From NCBI GenBank assembly GCA_018401745.1, contig JAGYJY010000020.1, positions 32,250-96,249 of the forward strand: a stretch of DNA of 64,000 nucleotides, read 5' to 3'. The position numbers were made by a program, and so were the translations under genes. Origin of the DNA: Pirellulales bacterium. GTDB lineage: Bacteria; Planctomycetota; Planctomycetia; Pirellulales; UBA1268. Of the stretch, positions 23,648 to 62,777 are shown piece by piece; position 1 is the stretch's first letter, and every line of letters starts with the position of its first letter. The notes below the pieces were generated by a model. That model was not told the origin of the DNA, searched no databases, and was given only the letters and a program-made list of their open reading frames with translations.

Positions 23648-26600
23648 ATGGATATCGAACGCTTGGAAATCGGCAGGTTCGGCTGCCTTCGCGACGTGCG
23701 GGTCGACGGCCTTGGTCCGGGTGTGCATGTGTTTCACGGCACGAACGAAACCGGCAAGACCACCCTGCTGGAGTTTGTGCGAGGCATGCTCTTCGGCTTC
23801 GGCTCACTCGCCCGCCGGGGCGTGATTGATGCCGACGTGGAGAGCGTCGGTCGGCTCGTGGTGCGGCCGGTCAGCGACGGTCGGCTCTGGAGCGTGGTCC
23901 GTCGACGCGGGGCGGGCGTTCCCCTGACGGGCAAGAACGCCCACGACGACCTTGTGGTCGAAGATGACGCTGGCCGTCAGCATGTCCGGTCGTCGCTGGA
24001 GGAATGGACCGGCGGACTCGACGAGGCGTCGTATGTGGCAGTGATGGCCTTTGGCCTCGACGAGCTTCACGAGCTTTCCTCGCTACAGGCAGCTGGCTGC
24101 GGAGGCCGTCTCTACGAGCTCGCCGGAGGCCTCGATCGCGGCCATGTCTTTCGCGTGATGGAGAACCTGCGGGCGGCCATCGAGCGGGCCGACAGCACCG
24201 ACCCAACCACCTCACCGATCGTCGCGCTCGAACGACGCTTGGCGGGGATCCATGATCGCTTTGAAGCTGCTGGCAGGCCCGCTGTCACCCGGGGCCGACA
24301 GGTGGCCGACGCGCGTCGCCTCCGCGGTGAAGTGAACGAGCTGGAGCCCCGCCTGGCGGCAGCGACCCTCGAGGAAGAGCGTCTGCTCGCCGCGATGGAT
24401 CTTGAGCCGTTGGTTCGCGAACGCGAGGCGGCCGGCAAGGCCCTGCGGCGATTCGACCCGGAAGATCTCGTGCATCCCGACTTCCGTCGCTGGCGACGCC
24501 TCGACAAACGGCGGCGGCGGGTGCAGCGGGTGCTCGAAGCCCGTCACAACACCCGGCGAGCGGCTGGCGGTCGAGGGCCGTCAGCTTCCCAAGGCATCGG
24601 CTGTCTGGCAGAAGCGGCGGCTGATTCGCCCCTTGCTCGACGACGAGCCTCGGCTTGAGCGACTCACCACCGAAGCTGTTCGCGCAGAGACAGCGGCCCT
24701 GCTTGCAGCCCGCCGGTTTGGTGAAGAGCTCGGCAGCCTTGGCCTCTCAAGACTCGTCGACGACGACACGGCAGCCTCGCACCGCGGCTCGCTCCTGCCT
24801 CCGGGTTTCAGCTCGGCATTTCGGGCGATGCGGAAGAAAGCGGCCGCCTGCTCCGCGGCCTCGCGGGCGGTTCGTGATGCCGCGGCTGAGGTGGAGGCGA
24901 TCGAGCAGGAGATCGCGGCCGTGGATGGGGGCGGTTCTGCCGATCGGGCAGCGGCAAGCCAGCAGCTGGCTGAGCGGCTCGAACAGGCTGCCGCTCTTGA
25001 GTCGCTGATCCGCAAACGGCTCAACACCGGCACGCAGCTCGACGACGTGCAGCGGTCGATCCAACGCATCGAGGACGATGTCCGCCATCGCCTGGAGGGG
25101 CAGGTGCTTCCCTCTGGCATCCTCACGACGCTCGGCACGGCCTTTAGCGTGGGGATCGGCCTGCTGTTTTCCGGGCTCCTGTTGCCCGCTGAAGTCACAG
25201 GCTCGATGGCCTATGCGATGGCGGCGGTGGGCCTCGCGGGAGCAGGCGTTGCCGGCGCAACCACCTGGTCACTCGACCGCTCCGCCGCCGGCCGCGTGGC
25301 CGCGGCTCGCAGCCAGCTCGCCACCGCCCACCGCCAGCGGCAGTCCGTTCTTGAAGCGCTCGCCGACCTCGATGCCCGGCTCGAAACCGACAGCATCGAA
25401 TCGCTGGACGCTCGGCTTCTCGCGGCCCGCAGTGAGGTATCCCTGCTCGAAGGCGAGGCTGCTCGGCTGGCAAGCCAGAGCGATCCTCGCGAGCGGTTGG
25501 CCGCCGCCCAAGCCCGGCTCTCGCAGGCTCAACACGCCAACAGTCGCACCCGCGATCGCTGGCAACAGGCCCTTGAATCCCGTGGCTTTCCAGGGCAGCT
25601 CACGCCCCGAACCTTTCGCGACCTGGCCCGGCACAGGCGGCATCTGGAGATGCTTGACGACGAACGACGGCATGCCGTTGAAGATGCCCGCGGCACGCGA
25701 GAGGATCTCACGACCGTCTCCCTGCCAATCGAGCAGGCCGTCGCCGCACTCGATCTCGGCAGCGAAGGGCTCACGCCGGTCGAGCTGTTGGGCATGCTGC
25801 GGGAGCGGCTTTCGGCAGATGAGTCCATCGTGCGGCGGCGAAAGCGGGTGCGGCGAGTGTTTGTGCGGGCTCGGCATGGCCACCGTCTTGCGGTGCGGCG
25901 GGTTAAGGCACTCAATGCCAGGATCGCCGAACTGCTCCGCCGCTGGGATGTGGAGAGCGAAGAGGCCTTCCTCGAGCGGGTCGATCGCCGCCAGGCCTAC
26001 GACGCGGCGGTGCAACGTGTCGACGCCAGTGGCACAGCAGTTGAGGAGGCTCGTCGCCTGCTCCCGCAGGAGAGCCTCGCCTCGATCGATGCCTGGATCG
26101 CCGAGGCCAACGAGCAGCCGCTCGAGCAGCGGGCCCAGGCTGCCTCGCAGCAGCGTGACCGGCTGGCAAGCAGCCTGCGTGAGCTTCGCGAACGACTCGC
26201 CGGCGTTGCCGCCGTTGCCGAGGCCTCCCGCAGCGACCGCAGCCTTGAGCTCCTGCAGACAGAAGCCGCCGAGATCGAGGAAGAGCTGGCCTTCCACCGA
26301 CGCCGACGGGTGGCCCTTCAGACCGCCCTCGAGCTGCTCACGGAAACCCGCCGGCGTTTTCTTGCCGAACACCAGCCGCCCGTTCTCCTGGAAGCATCGA
26401 CGTGGCTGGAACGGCTCACTGGCGGTCGCTACCGCCAGATCACGGCTGTTGCCGACGACGCCGTGCTGATGATCGAAGATGTTGACGGCGTGGAGTGGCT
26501 GCCCGAGCGACTCAGCCGAGGCACCCGTGAGCAGGTCTTCCTTGCCCTGCGGCTGGCGCTCGTCGCCGACCTCGAGCGGGCCGGCATCCGCCTGCCGCTG

Positions 26601-32778: not shown

Positions 32779-32927
32779 CGCGTCCTGACAGACGGCATGC
32801 GATGCAGCCCACCCCACACAGCAGGGCCGCACACCAGCCACGCAACCGGCCGACTCAAAAGCCGGCCCCGCGGACAACGGACAATGAGAGTTCTCGCAGC
32901 AGAGGGCCGCAGCAGAAAGAAAAAAAA

Positions 32928-33001
32928 TGCCCCGTCTAGGAATCGAACCTAGAACCCTCTGATTAAGAGTCAGATGCTCTAACCAATTGAGCTAACGGGG
33001 C
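32928..33001 (-). tRNA. tRNA-Lys (anticodon CUU)
   Basis: The minus strand reads GCCCCGT-TA-GCTC-AATTGGTTA-GAGC-A-TCTGA-CTCTTAA-TCAGA-GGGTT-CTAGG-TTCGATT-CCTAG-ACGGGGC-A. This is a full cloverleaf of 74 nt with no encoded CCA. An A8/T8 run immediately follows the 3' end. Confidence 0.95.
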
Positions 33002-58330: not shown

Positions 58331-59917
58331 TCAGCCGACCAACGGCTCGCCTGGCTCTGCCTCGGCTGCTTCTCCAGCGGGCACGGCTTCCGTCGCTTGA
58401 TCAGCCTCATCCGCGGCCGACGACTGACGAGAACCGCTTGTTTTCGCCAGTTTCCAGTCTCTCCGCTGCCGCGAACTGGGGATCTTCATCGCCTTGCGAT
58501 ATTTGGTGACCGTTCGCCTCGCCAGCGTGATGCCCCGCTTGCCGAGCTGCACCACCAGGTCGTCGTCGCTAAAGGGCCGATCCTTCGACTCGCCATCGAT
58601 GATCTCCTGCAGCCGCACCCGCACGGCGTCCCAGGCAACCTCCTCGCCATCAGCGCTCACGGTGCCGCCCACGAAGAAGCCTCGCAGCGGCAGCAGCCCC
58701 CGCGGCGTCTGCAGCCATTTATCGTCAACGGCCCGGCTGACCGTGGTCACGTGCATCCCGATCCGGTCGGCGATCTGCTGCATCTTCAACGGCTCAATCG
58801 CCTCTGGGCCCTCGGCGAGAAAACGGGTCTGGTGGTCGACGATCGCCTGGGCCGTTTTCAGCAGCGTGCTGCGCCGCTGCTCGATCGATTCGATCAGCCA
58901 CTGGGCGGAGTTGATCTTCCGCTTGATGTAGTCCCGCGTGGCCGCATCGGTTGAGGGCGACATCAGCATCTGCCGGTAGTAGGGGCTGATCCGCATGTTT
59001 GGCAGGTCGACCTCGTCAAGCCGGACCATCCACTTCCCGTTTTCATCCTGCTCGACAAACACGTCGGGCCTGACCGTCGGCACCACGCTCATCGCATACA
59101 GCGATCCTGGCTTGGGCTGCAGCCGATGCAGTTCCTGGCGAGCCTCTTCAATCTCCTCGATCGAATAGCCGGTGCGTTTCTCGATCATGGGCAGACGATT
59201 GGCCGCGAGATCTTCGAGGTGGTTGTCAACGATCGTCCGCAGCCGCACCGCGTCGGGGCTGCGGCCCTCGATCTGCAGCAGCAGGCATTCCCGCAGACTG
59301 CGAGCGCCCACGCCCCGCGGATCCATGCTCTGCACCACCTCAAGCGCTTTCGTCAGATCGGCCAGCTGACCGTCGGGGCCTTCCGCATCGACCAGTTCCT
59401 CCAGCGGAAGCTGCAGGTAGCCGTTGGCATCGAGGTTGTAGATCACCCGATCGGCCGCAGCTCGCTGCTCGCTGGTGAGGTCGTAGAGGGTGAGCTGCTC
59501 GTGGAGGTGGTCCGAAAGCGTTTCGGGCCGCTGCTCCATATTGGCCATCACGTCGAGGTAGCGGTCGGAGGCCTCATCGAGCCGCGAGGCACTCGATCTC
59601 GGCCGCTCTTCGTCGGTGTCGGGATATTCCGCCGACCAGTCGTACGACCGTTCAAAATCCGCCTGGTTGTCGTGCTCCTGATCGACGACAAGCGGCTGCT
59701 CCTCAGCAGTATTTTGCTGGGGTTCTACGGGCTCGCCCGGCTCCGTTCCGACCTCCGGCTCATCGATCTCGAGCGTCTCGTTGTTTTGAATCTCCTGCTC
59801 GATCCGCTCCTCAAGAGCCTGGTGGGCCAGCTGCAGAATCTCCATCGACTGGATCATGCGGGGCGCAAGCATCTGCTTTTGCGCCAGCCGCATTTCCTGT
59901 CCGAAAGAGAGTTTCAA
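58331..59917 (-). CDS. rpoN: RNA polymerase sigma-54 factor
   Basis: Region I 'LAQKQMLAPRMIQSMEILQL', core-binding and HTH regions, and the RpoN box 'ARRTVTKYRKAM'. It is followed by a ~55-aa Ala/Glu-rich tail. Confidence 0.92.
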   Translation of the reverse strand: MKLSFGQEMRLAQKQMLAPRMIQSMEILQLAHQALEERIEQEIQNNETLEIDEPEVGTEPGEPVEPQQNTAEEQPLVVDQEHDNQADFERSYDWSAEYPDTDEERPRSSASRLDEASDRYLDVMANMEQRPETLSDHLHEQLTLYDLTSEQRAAADRVIYNLDANGYLQLPLEELVDAEGPDGQLADLTKALEVVQSMDPRGVGARSLRECLLLQIEGRSPDAVRLRTIVDNHLEDLAANRLPMIEKRTGYSIEEIEEARQELHRLQPKPGSLYAMSVVPTVRPDVFVEQDENGKWMVRLDEVDLPNMRISPYYRQMLMSPSTDAATRDYIKRKINSAQWLIESIEQRRSTLLKTAQAIVDHQTRFLAEGPEAIEPLKMQQIADRIGMHVTTVSRAVDDKWLQTPRGLLPLRGFFVGGTVSADGEEVAWDAVRVRLQEIIDGESKDRPFSDDDLVVQLGKRGITLARRTVTKYRKAMKIPSSRQRRDWKLAKTSGSRQSSAADEADQATEAVPAGEAAEAEPGEPLVG

Positions 59918-60108: not shown

Positions 60109-60721
60109 TCAGAGCCGTTGCCGACCGGAGAGGGCGTCGGCGAGCATCGCCTTGTTGGCCTGCTCAAGAGGGCTGCCAACGACGAGCCCGCGGGCGAGCC
60201 GCGTCACCTCGACCGGCATTCCAGCAAGCCTGCCAGCGATGTCCGCTGCCGTGGCGTCTCCTTCCACGGTCGGGCTCGTGCCCATGATCACCTCGCGAAT
60301 GCCGCCGCTGCGGACGCGGTCGAGCAGTTGCCGAATGGTGAGCTGCTCAGGCCCCATCGCTCTCCAGCGGCGAGAGCCGCCCCTGCAACACATGGTAGCG
60401 TCCGCGATAGGTCCCAGCTGTCTCCAAAGCCAGGAGGTCTCGCACCTGCTCCACGACCATCAGCTGGCCCGAATCACGTCGCGAATCCTGACAGACCGTA
60501 CAGGTTTCCTCTTCGCAAAGGTTGAAGCAATCCTTACAGGGATGGAGCCGTTCGGTCACTGCCCGCACAGCATCGGCCAGGGCCTGGGTCTCATCGGGAG
60601 GCATCTTCATCACGTGGTAGGCCAGCCGCTCGGCCGACTTGCGACCGATCCCCGGCAAGCCGGCAAACTGCTCAATGAGCGTGGCGATCACACCGCGGGA
60701 GCTGTCTGATTTCGCTGCCAT
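60109..60721 (-). CDS. recR: recombination protein RecR, frame-disrupted as assembled
   Basis: HhH 'LPGIGRKSAERLAYHV' and Zn finger 'CKDCFNLCEEETCTVC' are in ORF 60347..60721. The Toprim 'EVIMGTSPTVEGDATA' and 'RLARGLVVGSPLEQ' are in ORF 60109..60393. The switch is at the G4 run in 'gatggggcct' (~60356-60362). Confidence 0.9.
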
Positions 60722-60750: not shown

Positions 60751-62628
60751 CTATCCGCCAGCCTCACGCGGCTTCCGGCCTCCCGCCGCAGGCGGATCAA
60801 CCCGGCGGATCGCGGCATCAAACACCGTGCGGGCGTGGCTCACCAGCGGGTGCTCCGAGGCAAGCCGCAGCAATGCCGCCTGCGACCGCGCGGCGGCAGG
60901 CTTCGGCTTTGCCGCCGCAGGTGCGGCAGCCTCAAACTGAAAAACGATCCGCGTTCGTCCGCTGAGCTCTCGGAGAGCCGCCGTCACGCTGGCGGCGACT
61001 TCCGGCCGCTTGAGGAAGGAACAGCCCGCCTCTCCCTTCGCTGGCATGGTGACTTCGATGCCATCATCGTCATGCCACACCGCACGCGTGGCCTCGCTGA
61101 TGAAGCCAGCGGCCATACCCCCGACCGTCTCGCCGACCTGCCGCCAGATGTCGAGCGGCAGGGCGTCGGGATCGATTGGAGAGGCCGCGGGAGTGGCTAC
61201 GGCTTCAGGAGGGGCTGCTGGTGCCGGACGGGGCTCGACGACATCCCGCGAGGCGACGGCCTTGTCGTCGGCTGGAGATGGAGCGGCTGGCCGCGGCGGT
61301 TCAGCTCCGCGGCCGCTGCGGCCGTTCAGGTCGGTCGTTTTTTTTTCGCGCGAGGGCGGCACCGCTGCAGCCGCCTGCGTGGGAGCCGTGGCCGCCTGAC
61401 CGCTCGCCAGCCGCGCAATCACATCAGCCAGCGACTCCATCCGCTCCATGCTCGCCAGCCGGACCACGGCCATCTCAGCAAGCACGGCCGCATGGCCTGC
61501 CGTCCGCATCCGAGCGAGCGACTGATCGATCACCTGCATCATCGCCAGGATCGTGTCGGTTCCCAGCGAGGTTGCCAGCGAGGCGACCGCAAGGCCACAG
61601 CTGCCGTCGGCATTCCAGAGCCGCTGCTCGGCCGACACACTCGCCAGCAGCATGTCGCGGAGCACAGCCAGGAGCTGCTCCAGCACACCACCGGCATCAG
61701 CTCCCCCCGACACCGCCGTATCGAGCGCTTCCACGGCCTCCCTGGGCTGCTGGCGGGCGATCGCCTCCACCAGCTGAGCCAGCCCCTCCTCGCGGCCGGT
61801 TCCCAGCAGCGAGTGGACCGCATCGACGCCAATACGGCTGTCGGACGAGGCCGCGGCCCCGAGCAGCTGCTCAAGCAGCGACTGGCTGTCGCGCATGCTG
61901 CCGTTGGCCCGTCGGGCCACCAGCCGCACCGCTTCGGCATCGATCTCCACGCCTTCGGCGGCCGCGATCTCCGCCAGCCGAGCCTCGATCGCGGTGGCTT
62001 CGACTGTGAGAAAATCAAACCGCTGGCAGCGGGAGAGGATCGTGATGGGCAGCTTCTCGGGCTCTGTCGTGCAGAGCACAAACTTCACGTGCTGCGGCGG
62101 CTCTTCCAGCGTCTTCAGGAGGGCGTTGAAGGCCTCCCGCGTGAGCATGTGGACTTCGTCGATGATGTAGATCTTGTAGCGGCCGCGGGCAGGTCGCACC
62201 GCGGCGTTCTGCCGCAGCTGCCGGATCTCGTCGATGCCGCGGTTGCTGGCGGCATCGATCTCCACCACGTCGACATCCTGCCCGGCGGAGATCGCTTCAC
62301 ACATCTCGCAGCGGTTGCATGGCTCGGCCGAGGCGTCGCTTCCTCCGGAGCGGCTGTCGGGGTCAGCGACCGTGCACTCAAGCGCCTTGGCAAAGATTCT
62401 CGCAGCGCTCGTCTTGCCCACGCCCCGAGCGCCCGTGAAGAGATAGGCATGCCCGATGCGGCCCGACCGGATCGCGCCGGCGAGCCCGCGGGCCACATGC
62501 GTCTGCCCGATCAGGTCGGCAAACCGCTGTGGCCGATACCGCCGTGCGACCACCCGGTAGGTGCCCGACGGCCTTGCAGGCATCGTGGCATCGCCGCTCG
62601 TCGGCACAGGTGATGTGTGCTCAGCCAT
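60751..62628 (-). CDS. dnaX: DNA polymerase III subunit gamma/tau
   Basis: 'YRPQRFADLIGQ', Walker A 'GARGVGKTSAARI', zinc module 'CNRCEMCEAI', 'IIDEVHMLT', 'SRCQRFDF'. Start set at ATG 62628, because the upstream part of the ORF is occupied by the SRP RNA hairpin. Confidence 0.92.
   Translation of the reverse strand: MAEHTSPVPTSGDATMPARPSGTYRVVARRYRPQRFADLIGQTHVARGLAGAIRSGRIGHAYLFTGARGVGKTSAARIFAKALECTVADPDSRSGGSDASAEPCNRCEMCEAISAGQDVDVVEIDAASNRGIDEIRQLRQNAAVRPARGRYKIYIIDEVHMLTREAFNALLKTLEEPPQHVKFVLCTTEPEKLPITILSRCQRFDFLTVEATAIEARLAEIAAAEGVEIDAEAVRLVARRANGSMRDSQSLLEQLLGAAASSDSRIGVDAVHSLLGTGREEGLAQLVEAIARQQPREAVEALDTAVSGGADAGGVLEQLLAVLRDMLLASVSAEQRLWNADGSCGLAVASLATSLGTDTILAMMQVIDQSLARMRTAGHAAVLAEMAVVRLASMERMESLADVIARLASGQAATAPTQAAAAVPPSREKKTTDLNGRSGRGAEPPRPAAPSPADDKAVASRDVVEPRPAPAAPPEAVATPAASPIDPDALPLDIWRQVGETVGGMAAGFISEATRAVWHDDDGIEVTMPAKGEAGCSFLKRPEVAASVTAALRELSGRTRIVFQFEAAAPAAAKPKPAAARSQAALLRLASEHPLVSHARTVFDAAIRRVDPPAAGGRKPREAGG
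61338..61346 (-). other. A9 homopolymer inside dnaX, a candidate recoding (frameshift or transcriptional slippage) site
   Basis: The forward strand has T9. The coding strand reads GAA AAA AAA ACG (E-K-K-T). Both shifted frames reach stop codons within 4 and 13 codons. Confidence 0.5.
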
Positions 62629-62661: not shown

Positions 62662-62777
62662 CACGGCCGCCGATGAGAGGCCCACCGCACAAAGAGACGA
62701 CTGCTTATGGCTGCTGCGGTTAGGCCCTGACCAGGTTCACAGATCCCCATCGCAGGGGCCTCTCATCGGAGGCCGTG
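62662..62777 (-). ncRNA. ffs: signal recognition particle RNA (4.5S, small bacterial type)
   Basis: The minus strand forms a long hairpin: CACGGCCTCCGATGAGAGGCCC ... GGGCCTCTCATCGGCGGCCGTG. Its apical region CTGTGAACCTGGTCAGGGCCTAACCGCAGCAGCCATAAGCAG closely resembles domain IV of E. coli 4.5S RNA (CTGTTTACCAGGTCAGGTCCGGAAGGAAGCAGCCAAGGCAG). It lies directly upstream of dnaX, a common synteny. The ends are approximate. Confidence 0.8.

Follow-up and report, generated by a model that had tools for sequence, protein, structure and literature searches.

Does the dnaX gene of this Pirellulales bacterium give rise to one protein or two? The question is raised by a run of nine A residues (A9) in the coding strand of dnaX, within the 64,000-nucleotide stretch of contig JAGYJY010000020.1 analyzed here and called the window below. 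The gene lies on the minus strand, from an ATG at 62628 to a TAG at 60751-60753 (coding sequence 60751-62628), and its zero frame encodes a full-length tau-like DnaX of 625 aa. The A9 tract occupies 61338-61346 on the same strand. A sequence-only reading of this DNA had proposed the tract as a candidate tau/gamma recoding site and a truncated, gamma-like DnaX as its possible product. The comparative evidence given below supports that proposal, with gamma production itself a prediction, and favors a reading in which A9 is a programmed transcriptional slippage site of the Thermus thermophilus dnaX kind that yields gamma. We give this reading a probability of roughly 0.6.

The A9 tract and its conservation in close relatives

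The dnaX product was matched by the NCBIfam profile TIGR02397 (dnaX_nterm) with E = 2e-122 and 408 bits against a cut-off of 250, and by the Pfam families DNA_pol3_delta2, DNAX_ATPase_lid, and DNA_pol3_gamma3 (PF13177, PF22608, and PF12169). By these profiles the AAA+ clamp-loader N-terminal domains I-III are present. The end of domain III falls at about residue 401, and A9 begins about 27 codons further on, at ~68% of the length of the gene. The ATG at 62628 is the likelier start because a longer open reading frame (ORF) beginning with GTG at 62685 overlaps the signal recognition particle (SRP) RNA gene.

A re-check of the coordinates again placed T9 at 61338-61346 of the forward strand, which on the coding strand of dnaX is an A9 embedded in TCG CGC GAA AAA AAA ACG ACC GAC CTG AAC. 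Counted from ATG 62628, the tract covers E428-K429-K430 of the 625-aa protein, as the sequence-only reading had placed it; at the nucleotide level it is divided G-AA AAA AAA A-CG over codons 428-431 (E K K T). The A_AAA_AAA slippery pattern that had been pointed out is in frame in dnaX, forming an X_XXY_YYZ heptamer within A9, and the Escherichia coli heptamer A_AAA_AAG is not present there. The zero frame remains open for 195 codons past A9, to the end of tau, giving a single tau ORF. The claim that nine A residues stand out in such GC-rich DNA was also borne out: the window is 66% G+C, a simple base-composition model predicts about 0.01 A9/T9 runs in 64 kb, and A9 of dnaX is the longest homopolymer found. 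Only one other A/T run of at least eight nucleotides occurs in the window, a T-run at 32920-32927 directly 3' of a tRNA-Lys gene.

The closest DnaX proteins belong to uncultured aquatic Planctomycetota labelled Pirellulales or Planctomycetia. Among the 120 best homologues (53-98% identity), 119 have [E/Q/K]KK[T/K] at the matching place, and an alignment of 30 homologues gave an island, R-[E/Q]-K-K-T-T-D-L, in an otherwise unalignable and hypervariable Ala/Pro-rich linker located between domain III and a conserved C-terminal domain. For analysis at the nucleotide level, metagenome contigs of relatives were picked by the motif at the end of domain III alone ([LIV]LAM[LM]Q… and GHAx[VIL]LAEM), with the tract ignored, which gave 80 loci. 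An A-run is found in 79 of these (A9 in 70, A10 in 8, and A8 in 1), and the 80th locus stops short of the tract site. The run lies 8-49 codons past the domain III motif and always begins at codon position 2. These dnaX tracts are the sole A/T runs of at least eight nucleotides across the 336 kb of relatives' loci. In all 78 complete relatives the tract is in frame with full-length tau, and no frame-breaking length polymorphism was seen.

Codon and frame statistics were taken from the 72 distinct sequence contexts among these motif-chosen loci. All 72 read NAA AAA AAA, although in the relatives' dnaX genes AAA accounts for just 16% of Lys codons, with GAA at 27% for Glu and CAA at 13% for Gln. 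The first tract codon alternates between Glu (GAA) and Gln (CAA) with the AA retained, GAG or CAG never being used, and the fourth tract codon starts with A in 64 of the 65 A9 relatives. These codon choices indicate that the run is preserved by selection at the nucleotide level. As NAA AAA AAA is used everywhere against codon bias and is followed by an A-starting codon, the unit under selection would be a run of 9-10 A, neither the peptide nor the heptamer alone. The length seems to be held at 9-10 rather than at that of the heptamer, because codon 0 is always NAA although NNA would suffice for a heptamer. Moreover, the absence of other long A-runs from the sampled DNA of the relatives suggests that such runs are avoided unless useful.

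Shifted frames and the sequence around the run

Both shifted frames of the window dnaX terminate quickly, as the sequence-only reading had said. One extra A gives EKK-NDRPERPQRPRS-stop, the -1 frame closing 12 codons past the run at the TGA at 61301-61303 (minus strand); an mRNA with an additional A, or ribosomes shifting by -1, would yield 442 aa ending …EKKNDRPERPQRPRS-stop. One A fewer gives EKK-RPT-stop, with termination 3 codons past the run at the TGA at 61326-61328 (minus strand), so that one A fewer or two extra A's would yield a product of 433-434 aa ending …EKK(K)RPT-stop.

In the relatives, the extra-A frame closes 1-17 codons past the run in 72/72 distinct contexts, whereas at control positions in the same genes this frame meets a stop within 20 codons in only 25% of cases. 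The one-A-fewer frame closes after exactly 3 codons in 46/72 relatives, again with TGA. This TGA arises from CTG-A: of the 43 Leu codons at that place, 42 are CTG or TTG, although the commonest background Leu codon in the dnaX genes of the relatives is CTC (45%). Both shifted frames are closed within 20 codons in 81% of the 72 relatives versus 8% of control positions, where it should be noted that the 72 contexts share ancestry and are not independent trials, although the pattern extends over a clade in which DnaX is only ~55-60% identical to that of the window. Thus, the tract (79/80 loci) and the out-of-frame stops that had been described for the window are both conserved in related dnaX genes, and stops in both non-zero frames close to the run, the arrangement of Thermus dnaX, are found in the window and in its relatives.

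In one subclade (L088, L092, L098, L102, L108, L134, and others) the tract is followed by …ACC GAC CGG GCC, and the CTGA stop is gone. There the one-A-fewer frame is 62-76 codons long and the extra-A frame closes within ~13 codons, so one slipped class would carry a longer out-of-frame tail.

The sequence on either side of the run is also constrained. In an anchored comparison of the relatives, the 5' flank CGCGCG (61347-61352, minus strand), composed of the Arg codon CGC and the G of GAA, is the best-conserved stretch upstream of the tract at 0.8-1.6 bits per position, and the Arg at codon -1 is encoded by CGC in 50/50 cases versus a background of 32%. The 3' flank CGACCGACCTGA (61326-61337, minus strand) carries 0.6-1.4 bits per position, and its last three bases are the TGA at 61326-61328. 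The first Thr codon after the two AAA codons is ACG in 63 of 64 cases. The next Thr codon is ACC in 45 of 49 and never ACG, although ACG makes up 54% of background Thr codons. Synonymous sites beside the tract therefore appear to be constrained beyond what the stop codons need, only the TGA part being explained. The flank conservation could partly reflect the protein motif R-E-K-K-T-T-D, and the constraint may tune slippage or reflect three overlapping reading frames.

What would be lost from the short form is the tau-only part (60754-61337, minus strand), which comprises what is left of the variable Ala/Pro-rich linker plus a C-terminal domain of ~125 aa that forms a conserved block in the homologue alignment. 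An AlphaFold model of this domain (60751-61200, minus strand) has a mean pLDDT (predicted local distance difference test score) of 86 and a helix/strand order of ααββααβ followed by two more helices. The domain has no Pfam family and no PDB sequence match, and a fold search with it gave nothing at E ≤ 0.001. Weak resemblance was seen to KH-like replication-initiation modules (DciA, and DnaA domain I at E = 0.013) and, at E = 0.24-0.31, to two chains of the E. coli tau C-terminus, 5fkv_E and 5fku_E. The tau-specific C-terminal domain binds the polymerase alpha subunit, a role for which the present domain is a candidate.

Possible routes to a shorter DnaX

In the slippage reading, copying of the nine template T's would produce a 9-bp RNA:DNA hybrid composed entirely of rA:dT and hence able to slip, and the dnaX mRNA pool would contain A9 plus A10, A11, A8, and other forms. 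The A9 and +3 A mRNAs would be translated into full-length tau-like DnaX (625-626 aa), the one-extra-A mRNAs into the 442-aa product, and the two-extra-A or one-A-fewer mRNAs into the 433-434-aa products. The predicted short products are gamma-like because domains I-III and ~27 linker residues would be kept and the remaining linker and C-terminal domain lost. From these comparisons we infer that slippage occurs and that the cell produces and employs the short protein.

The precedent is T. thermophilus dnaX (Larsen et al. 2000, as summarized in PMC1088944 and PMC5009743), where RNA polymerase slips on an A9 run, both non-zero frames contain stops, and gamma makes up ~50% of the product. In many bacterial genomes, signs of selection against slippage emerge once runs reach nine nucleotides (PMC1088944). 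The two genes are alike in having a single tau ORF, a sense-strand A9 past the clamp-loader core, and nearby stops in the two non-zero frames, and in their outcome (predicted in the present case), a gamma lacking the C-terminal part. They differ in that slippage and the two proteins are experimental findings in Thermus and sequence-based predictions here, in the position of the tract, given as 'seven-eighths' along the gene in PMC1088944 versus ~68% here, and in phylum, the present gene being from a Pirellulales-like member of the Planctomycetota. In the Pirellulales-like genes, moreover, the flanks CGCGCG and CGACCGACCTGA are conserved and their synonymous sites constrained. In the two-ORF dnaX of the Chlorobi type (Antonov et al. 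2013, PMC3711429), transcriptional slippage has been proposed for a poly-A run, mostly A10, that sits at the corresponding point of the gene. There the zero frame stops just past the run, making gamma the default product and tau the one that needs a shift, a form seen in the Chlorobium locus L057 of our wider sample; in contrast, the zero frame of the window gene continues to full-length tau.

The strongest alternative is programmed ribosomal frameshifting as in E. coli, with -1 (less often +1) shifts at A_AAA_AAA on a homogeneous mRNA giving gamma. We consider it unlikely, though it is the best of the alternatives, and transcriptional slippage and ribosomal frameshifting may act together. The -1 frame, which is also the extra-A frame, is the one closed within 17 codons in every relative and is the only frame to close early in 14/72 of them, and -1 frameshifting takes place at the same protein location in E. 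coli dnaX (PMC3711429, PMC5009743). However, the best-conserved stop, the TGA 3 codons on, is not in the -1 frame, the two A's past the heptamer are conserved without being needed by it, and A_AAA_AAA is far less shift-prone than A_AAA_AAG in E. coli (PMC5009743). The E. coli site combines A_AAA_AAG with an upstream Shine-Dalgarno (SD)-like element and a stem-loop a few nt downstream, with a stop one codon after the shift (PMC3711429, PMC5009743). The window gene resembles it in being the same gene, with a near-identical site (codons 428-430), an A-rich slippery sequence, and a gamma lacking the tau C-terminus. It differs in having an A9 run rather than a heptamer ending in G and a -1 stop 12 codons off, and in that neither stimulator is present or conserved. 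For comparison with the lengths predicted here, E. coli gamma has 431 aa.

Candidate stimulators were examined on both sides of the run. Upstream SD-like tetramers are not enriched, being found in 7/72 relatives (10%) versus 21% of control positions. Downstream, the perfect 8-bp GC inverted repeat that the sequence-only reading had noted 23 nt past the tract does exist (61289-61314, minus strand), with the arm GGCCGCGG at 61307-61314, a 10-nt loop, and the arm CCGCGGCC at 61289-61296. In the close relative L081, whose adjacent recR DNA is 97% identical, the pairing is disrupted with no compensating change, and other relatives lack the repeat. Being too distant and not conserved, the repeat does not qualify as a stimulator and is probably incidental to the mechanism. 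The 60 nt downstream fold no more strongly than other windows of the same genes (mean minimum free energy (MFE) z = 0.04), and RNAalifold on the 65 A9 relatives returned an empty consensus structure on both sides of the tract. A downstream stimulator was therefore rejected: the repeat is unconserved, folding is at control level, and there is no RNAalifold consensus. Because the run is held at 9-10 A and neither a conserved SD-like element nor downstream structure accompanies it, the Thermus-type route is favored over the E. coli type. The window site shows all the sequence features of the former and lacks the stimulators of the latter.

An upstream terminator-like hairpin was likewise rejected. 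The 50 nt upstream seem more structured (z = -0.94), yet their MFE equals that of shuffles retaining the last 6 nt, and the share of relatives whose last upstream helix ends no more than 3 nt from the run is 67%, versus 55-56% of control windows and 72% of shuffles. Both helix proximity and MFE thus match controls or shuffles, and the upstream consensus of the relatives is the hairpin-free CGCGCG. Such a hairpin matters for slippage in insertion sequence (IS) elements, where a short run reportedly needs a hairpin in the nascent RNA immediately on its 5' side (Penno et al. 2015). The IS systems are alike in that RNA polymerase slippage on a homopolymer gives two proteins, and unlike the present case in that upstream folding here is at the level of shuffles and controls with no consensus hairpin.

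If there were no recoding, R-[E/Q]-K-K-T-T-D-L would be a protein motif of the tau linker, for example for binding or protease recognition, and any slippage an unselected side effect. Amino-acid conservation does reach past the A-run to T-T-D-L, and Caulobacter gamma arises by partial ClpXP proteolysis of tau, showing that linker motifs can matter (PMC5009743, bioRxiv 10.1101/2022.11.10.516041). A protein motif cannot account for the codon choice, however, with AAA AAA in 72/72 against a 16% background share and GAA or CAA always in first place. Nor does it fit the other Planctomycetota, where the A-run occurs in a different codon phase with other flanking residues, or the enrichment of shifted-frame stops near the run and the absence of other long A-runs from the sampled DNA. 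We regard this explanation as improbable. Least probable by a wide measure is an effect at the DNA level, whether hypermutation or phase variation of the homopolymer or an error of assembly: homopolymers are liable to replication slippage and sequencing error, and the adjacent recR of the window has a 1-nt insertion relative to close relatives, but contigs of runs X1, X2, and X6 read A9 without gaps and the tract is in frame with full-length tau in 78/78 complete relatives with no frame-breaking polymorphism.

Several observations weigh against transcriptional slippage as the favored reading. The first is that A_AAA_AAA is a valid in-frame -1 heptamer, so that slippage by ribosomes could play a part or even be the actual mechanism. 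Second, the one-A-fewer frame is open for 35-76 codons in 14/72 relatives, which would be consistent with a design that uses the extra-A (or -1) frame alone. Third, the slippage model does not account for why CGCGCG and CGACCGAC are conserved on either side of the run. Fourth, the homologue P0076/L161 (gene 428-2317) has an interrupted tract, CAAAAAAACACG (A7-C-A). It is the only one of the 120 homologues that lacks the KK motif and comes from a single low-coverage metagenome contig; either the run was lost naturally or the reads are in error.

The fifth point comes from public RNA runs, which were examined as assembled contigs. Three metatranscriptome contigs of the Gemmata relative L009 span the tract as templated A9 with no gap, at depths of 6-11, indicating that A9 is at least the major RNA form there; note that assembly drops minor variants. 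One further L009 contig ends inside the tract, and no variant number of A's occurs in the RNA-run contigs that cross it. Four RNA-labelled runs contain the dnaX of the window organism and several more contain that of L009. The true metatranscriptome contigs for the window organism end before the tract, and the only RNA-labelled contig of this organism to span it, that of X6, reads A9. Run X6, labelled RNA-Seq, is probably DNA in nature given its flat depth of ~31 on a 3.3-kb contig, and contigs of the DNA runs X1 and X2 and of the DNA-like X6 all cross the tract gap-free as A9.

Occurrence beyond the clade, neighboring genes, and significance

A wider scan took one genome per species, giving 80 mixed bacterial loci. 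In this unselected sample an A8-A11 run just past domain III was present in 21/80 species, and in 20 of the 21 both shifted frames were closed within 21 codons, the remaining one being the Chlorobium two-ORF form. The 21 span most of the sampled Planctomycetota orders plus Ignavibacteriota, Bacteroidota, Chlorobiota, Fibrobacterota, Desulfobacterota, and Leptospira. The Planctomycetota with A8-A10 are two Pirellulales-like metagenome-assembled genomes (MAGs), L001 (which is labelled Planctomycetaceae) and L002, together with another Planctomycetaceae MAG, Planctomicrobium, Aporhodopirellula aestuarii ICT_H3.1 (L008, A10), Gemmata sp. (L009, A9), three Phycisphaerae, two unclassified MAGs, and a Sedimentisphaerales MAG (A8). 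The shifted frames close within 0-11 codons in these, except that one frame of the Sedimentisphaerales A8 locus extends 21 codons. Codon phase and flanks vary by order, as in GCA AAA AAA AAC (A-K-K-N) in Gemmata and Q-K-K-N-D in Planctomycetaceae, and because they vary the run itself would be the conserved feature. Outside this phylum, A9-A11 past domain III with stops in both frames within 0-16 codons was found in seven loci (L012, L014, L015, L020, L060, L065, and L078) from Ignavibacteriota, Desulfobacteraceae, Bacteroidota, Fibrobacteria, and Leptospira biflexa. No long A-run past domain III was seen in L003, L005, L013, and L023 (SZUA-1497, a Thermoguttaceae MAG, Candidatus Scalindua, and one other MAG), and a search of these four for substitute slippery heptamers gave none that was convincing; the dnaX of Candidatus Scalindua has an A_AAA_AAT heptamer 28 codons past domain III. 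From this sampling, A-run dnaX genes seem much more widespread than the published cases.

The genes around dnaX run ffs-dnaX-recR, and no ybaB separates the last two. The SRP RNA gene (bacterial small SRP, Rfam RF00169, 47.6 bits) is at 62669-62767 on the minus strand, immediately upstream of dnaX. Directly downstream, recR (60109-60721, minus strand) is split in two ORFs by an indel near 60358-60361, one ORF encoding the HhH and Zn-finger domains and the start of Toprim and the other the rest of Toprim. The split results from a 1-nt insertion relative to the close relatives L081 and L083, which have an intact 204-aa RecR, and represents either a pseudogene or an assembly error. Downstream of recR, also on the minus strand, is rpoN (58331-59917), encoding sigma-54 with the Pfam AID, CBD, and DBD domains. 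Elsewhere in the window, a tRNA-Lys(CUU) gene at 32928-33001 (minus strand) is followed by T8 on its own strand (A8 on the plus strand at 32920-32927), probably a terminator or processing signal; the tRNA gene itself shows that the organism has a dedicated AAG-reading tRNA. ARAGORN also called a tRNA-Thr(CGU) at 25612-25703 (minus strand), with its anticodon at position 38. A length of 92 nt is exceptional for tRNA-Thr; the gene may harbor an intron or insertion, or the call may be wrong.

The kind of system proposed is already known (Thermus in 2000 and the Chlorobi variant in 2013), and a search of the literature library used here found no description of dnaX recoding in Planctomycetes; by the sequence comparisons made here, the Planctomycetota case looks to be a well-supported addition. 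More tentatively, slippage on an A-run rather than the E. coli frameshift may be the common route to gamma in bacteria, and in the Pirellulales-like clade the constrained, hairpin-free flanks CGC-G·A9·CG-ACC-GAC-CTGA may be a new element, based on sequence alone, that would set the slippage rate and with it the tau:gamma ratio, possibly by slowing polymerase translocation while the hybrid is all A:T.

Tau and gamma have been studied in few organisms (E. coli, Thermus, and Caulobacter), and the reason for having two forms is still unclear. The result adds a whole, poorly studied phylum with a tau/gamma switch predicted from sequence. The tract is simple and easily mutated, since GAG AAG AAG ACG would abolish the run without altering the protein, and the flank constraint would provide a handle on slippage efficiency that does not involve an RNA hairpin. 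For annotation, the dnaX entries of these genomes should note an expected second, shorter product.

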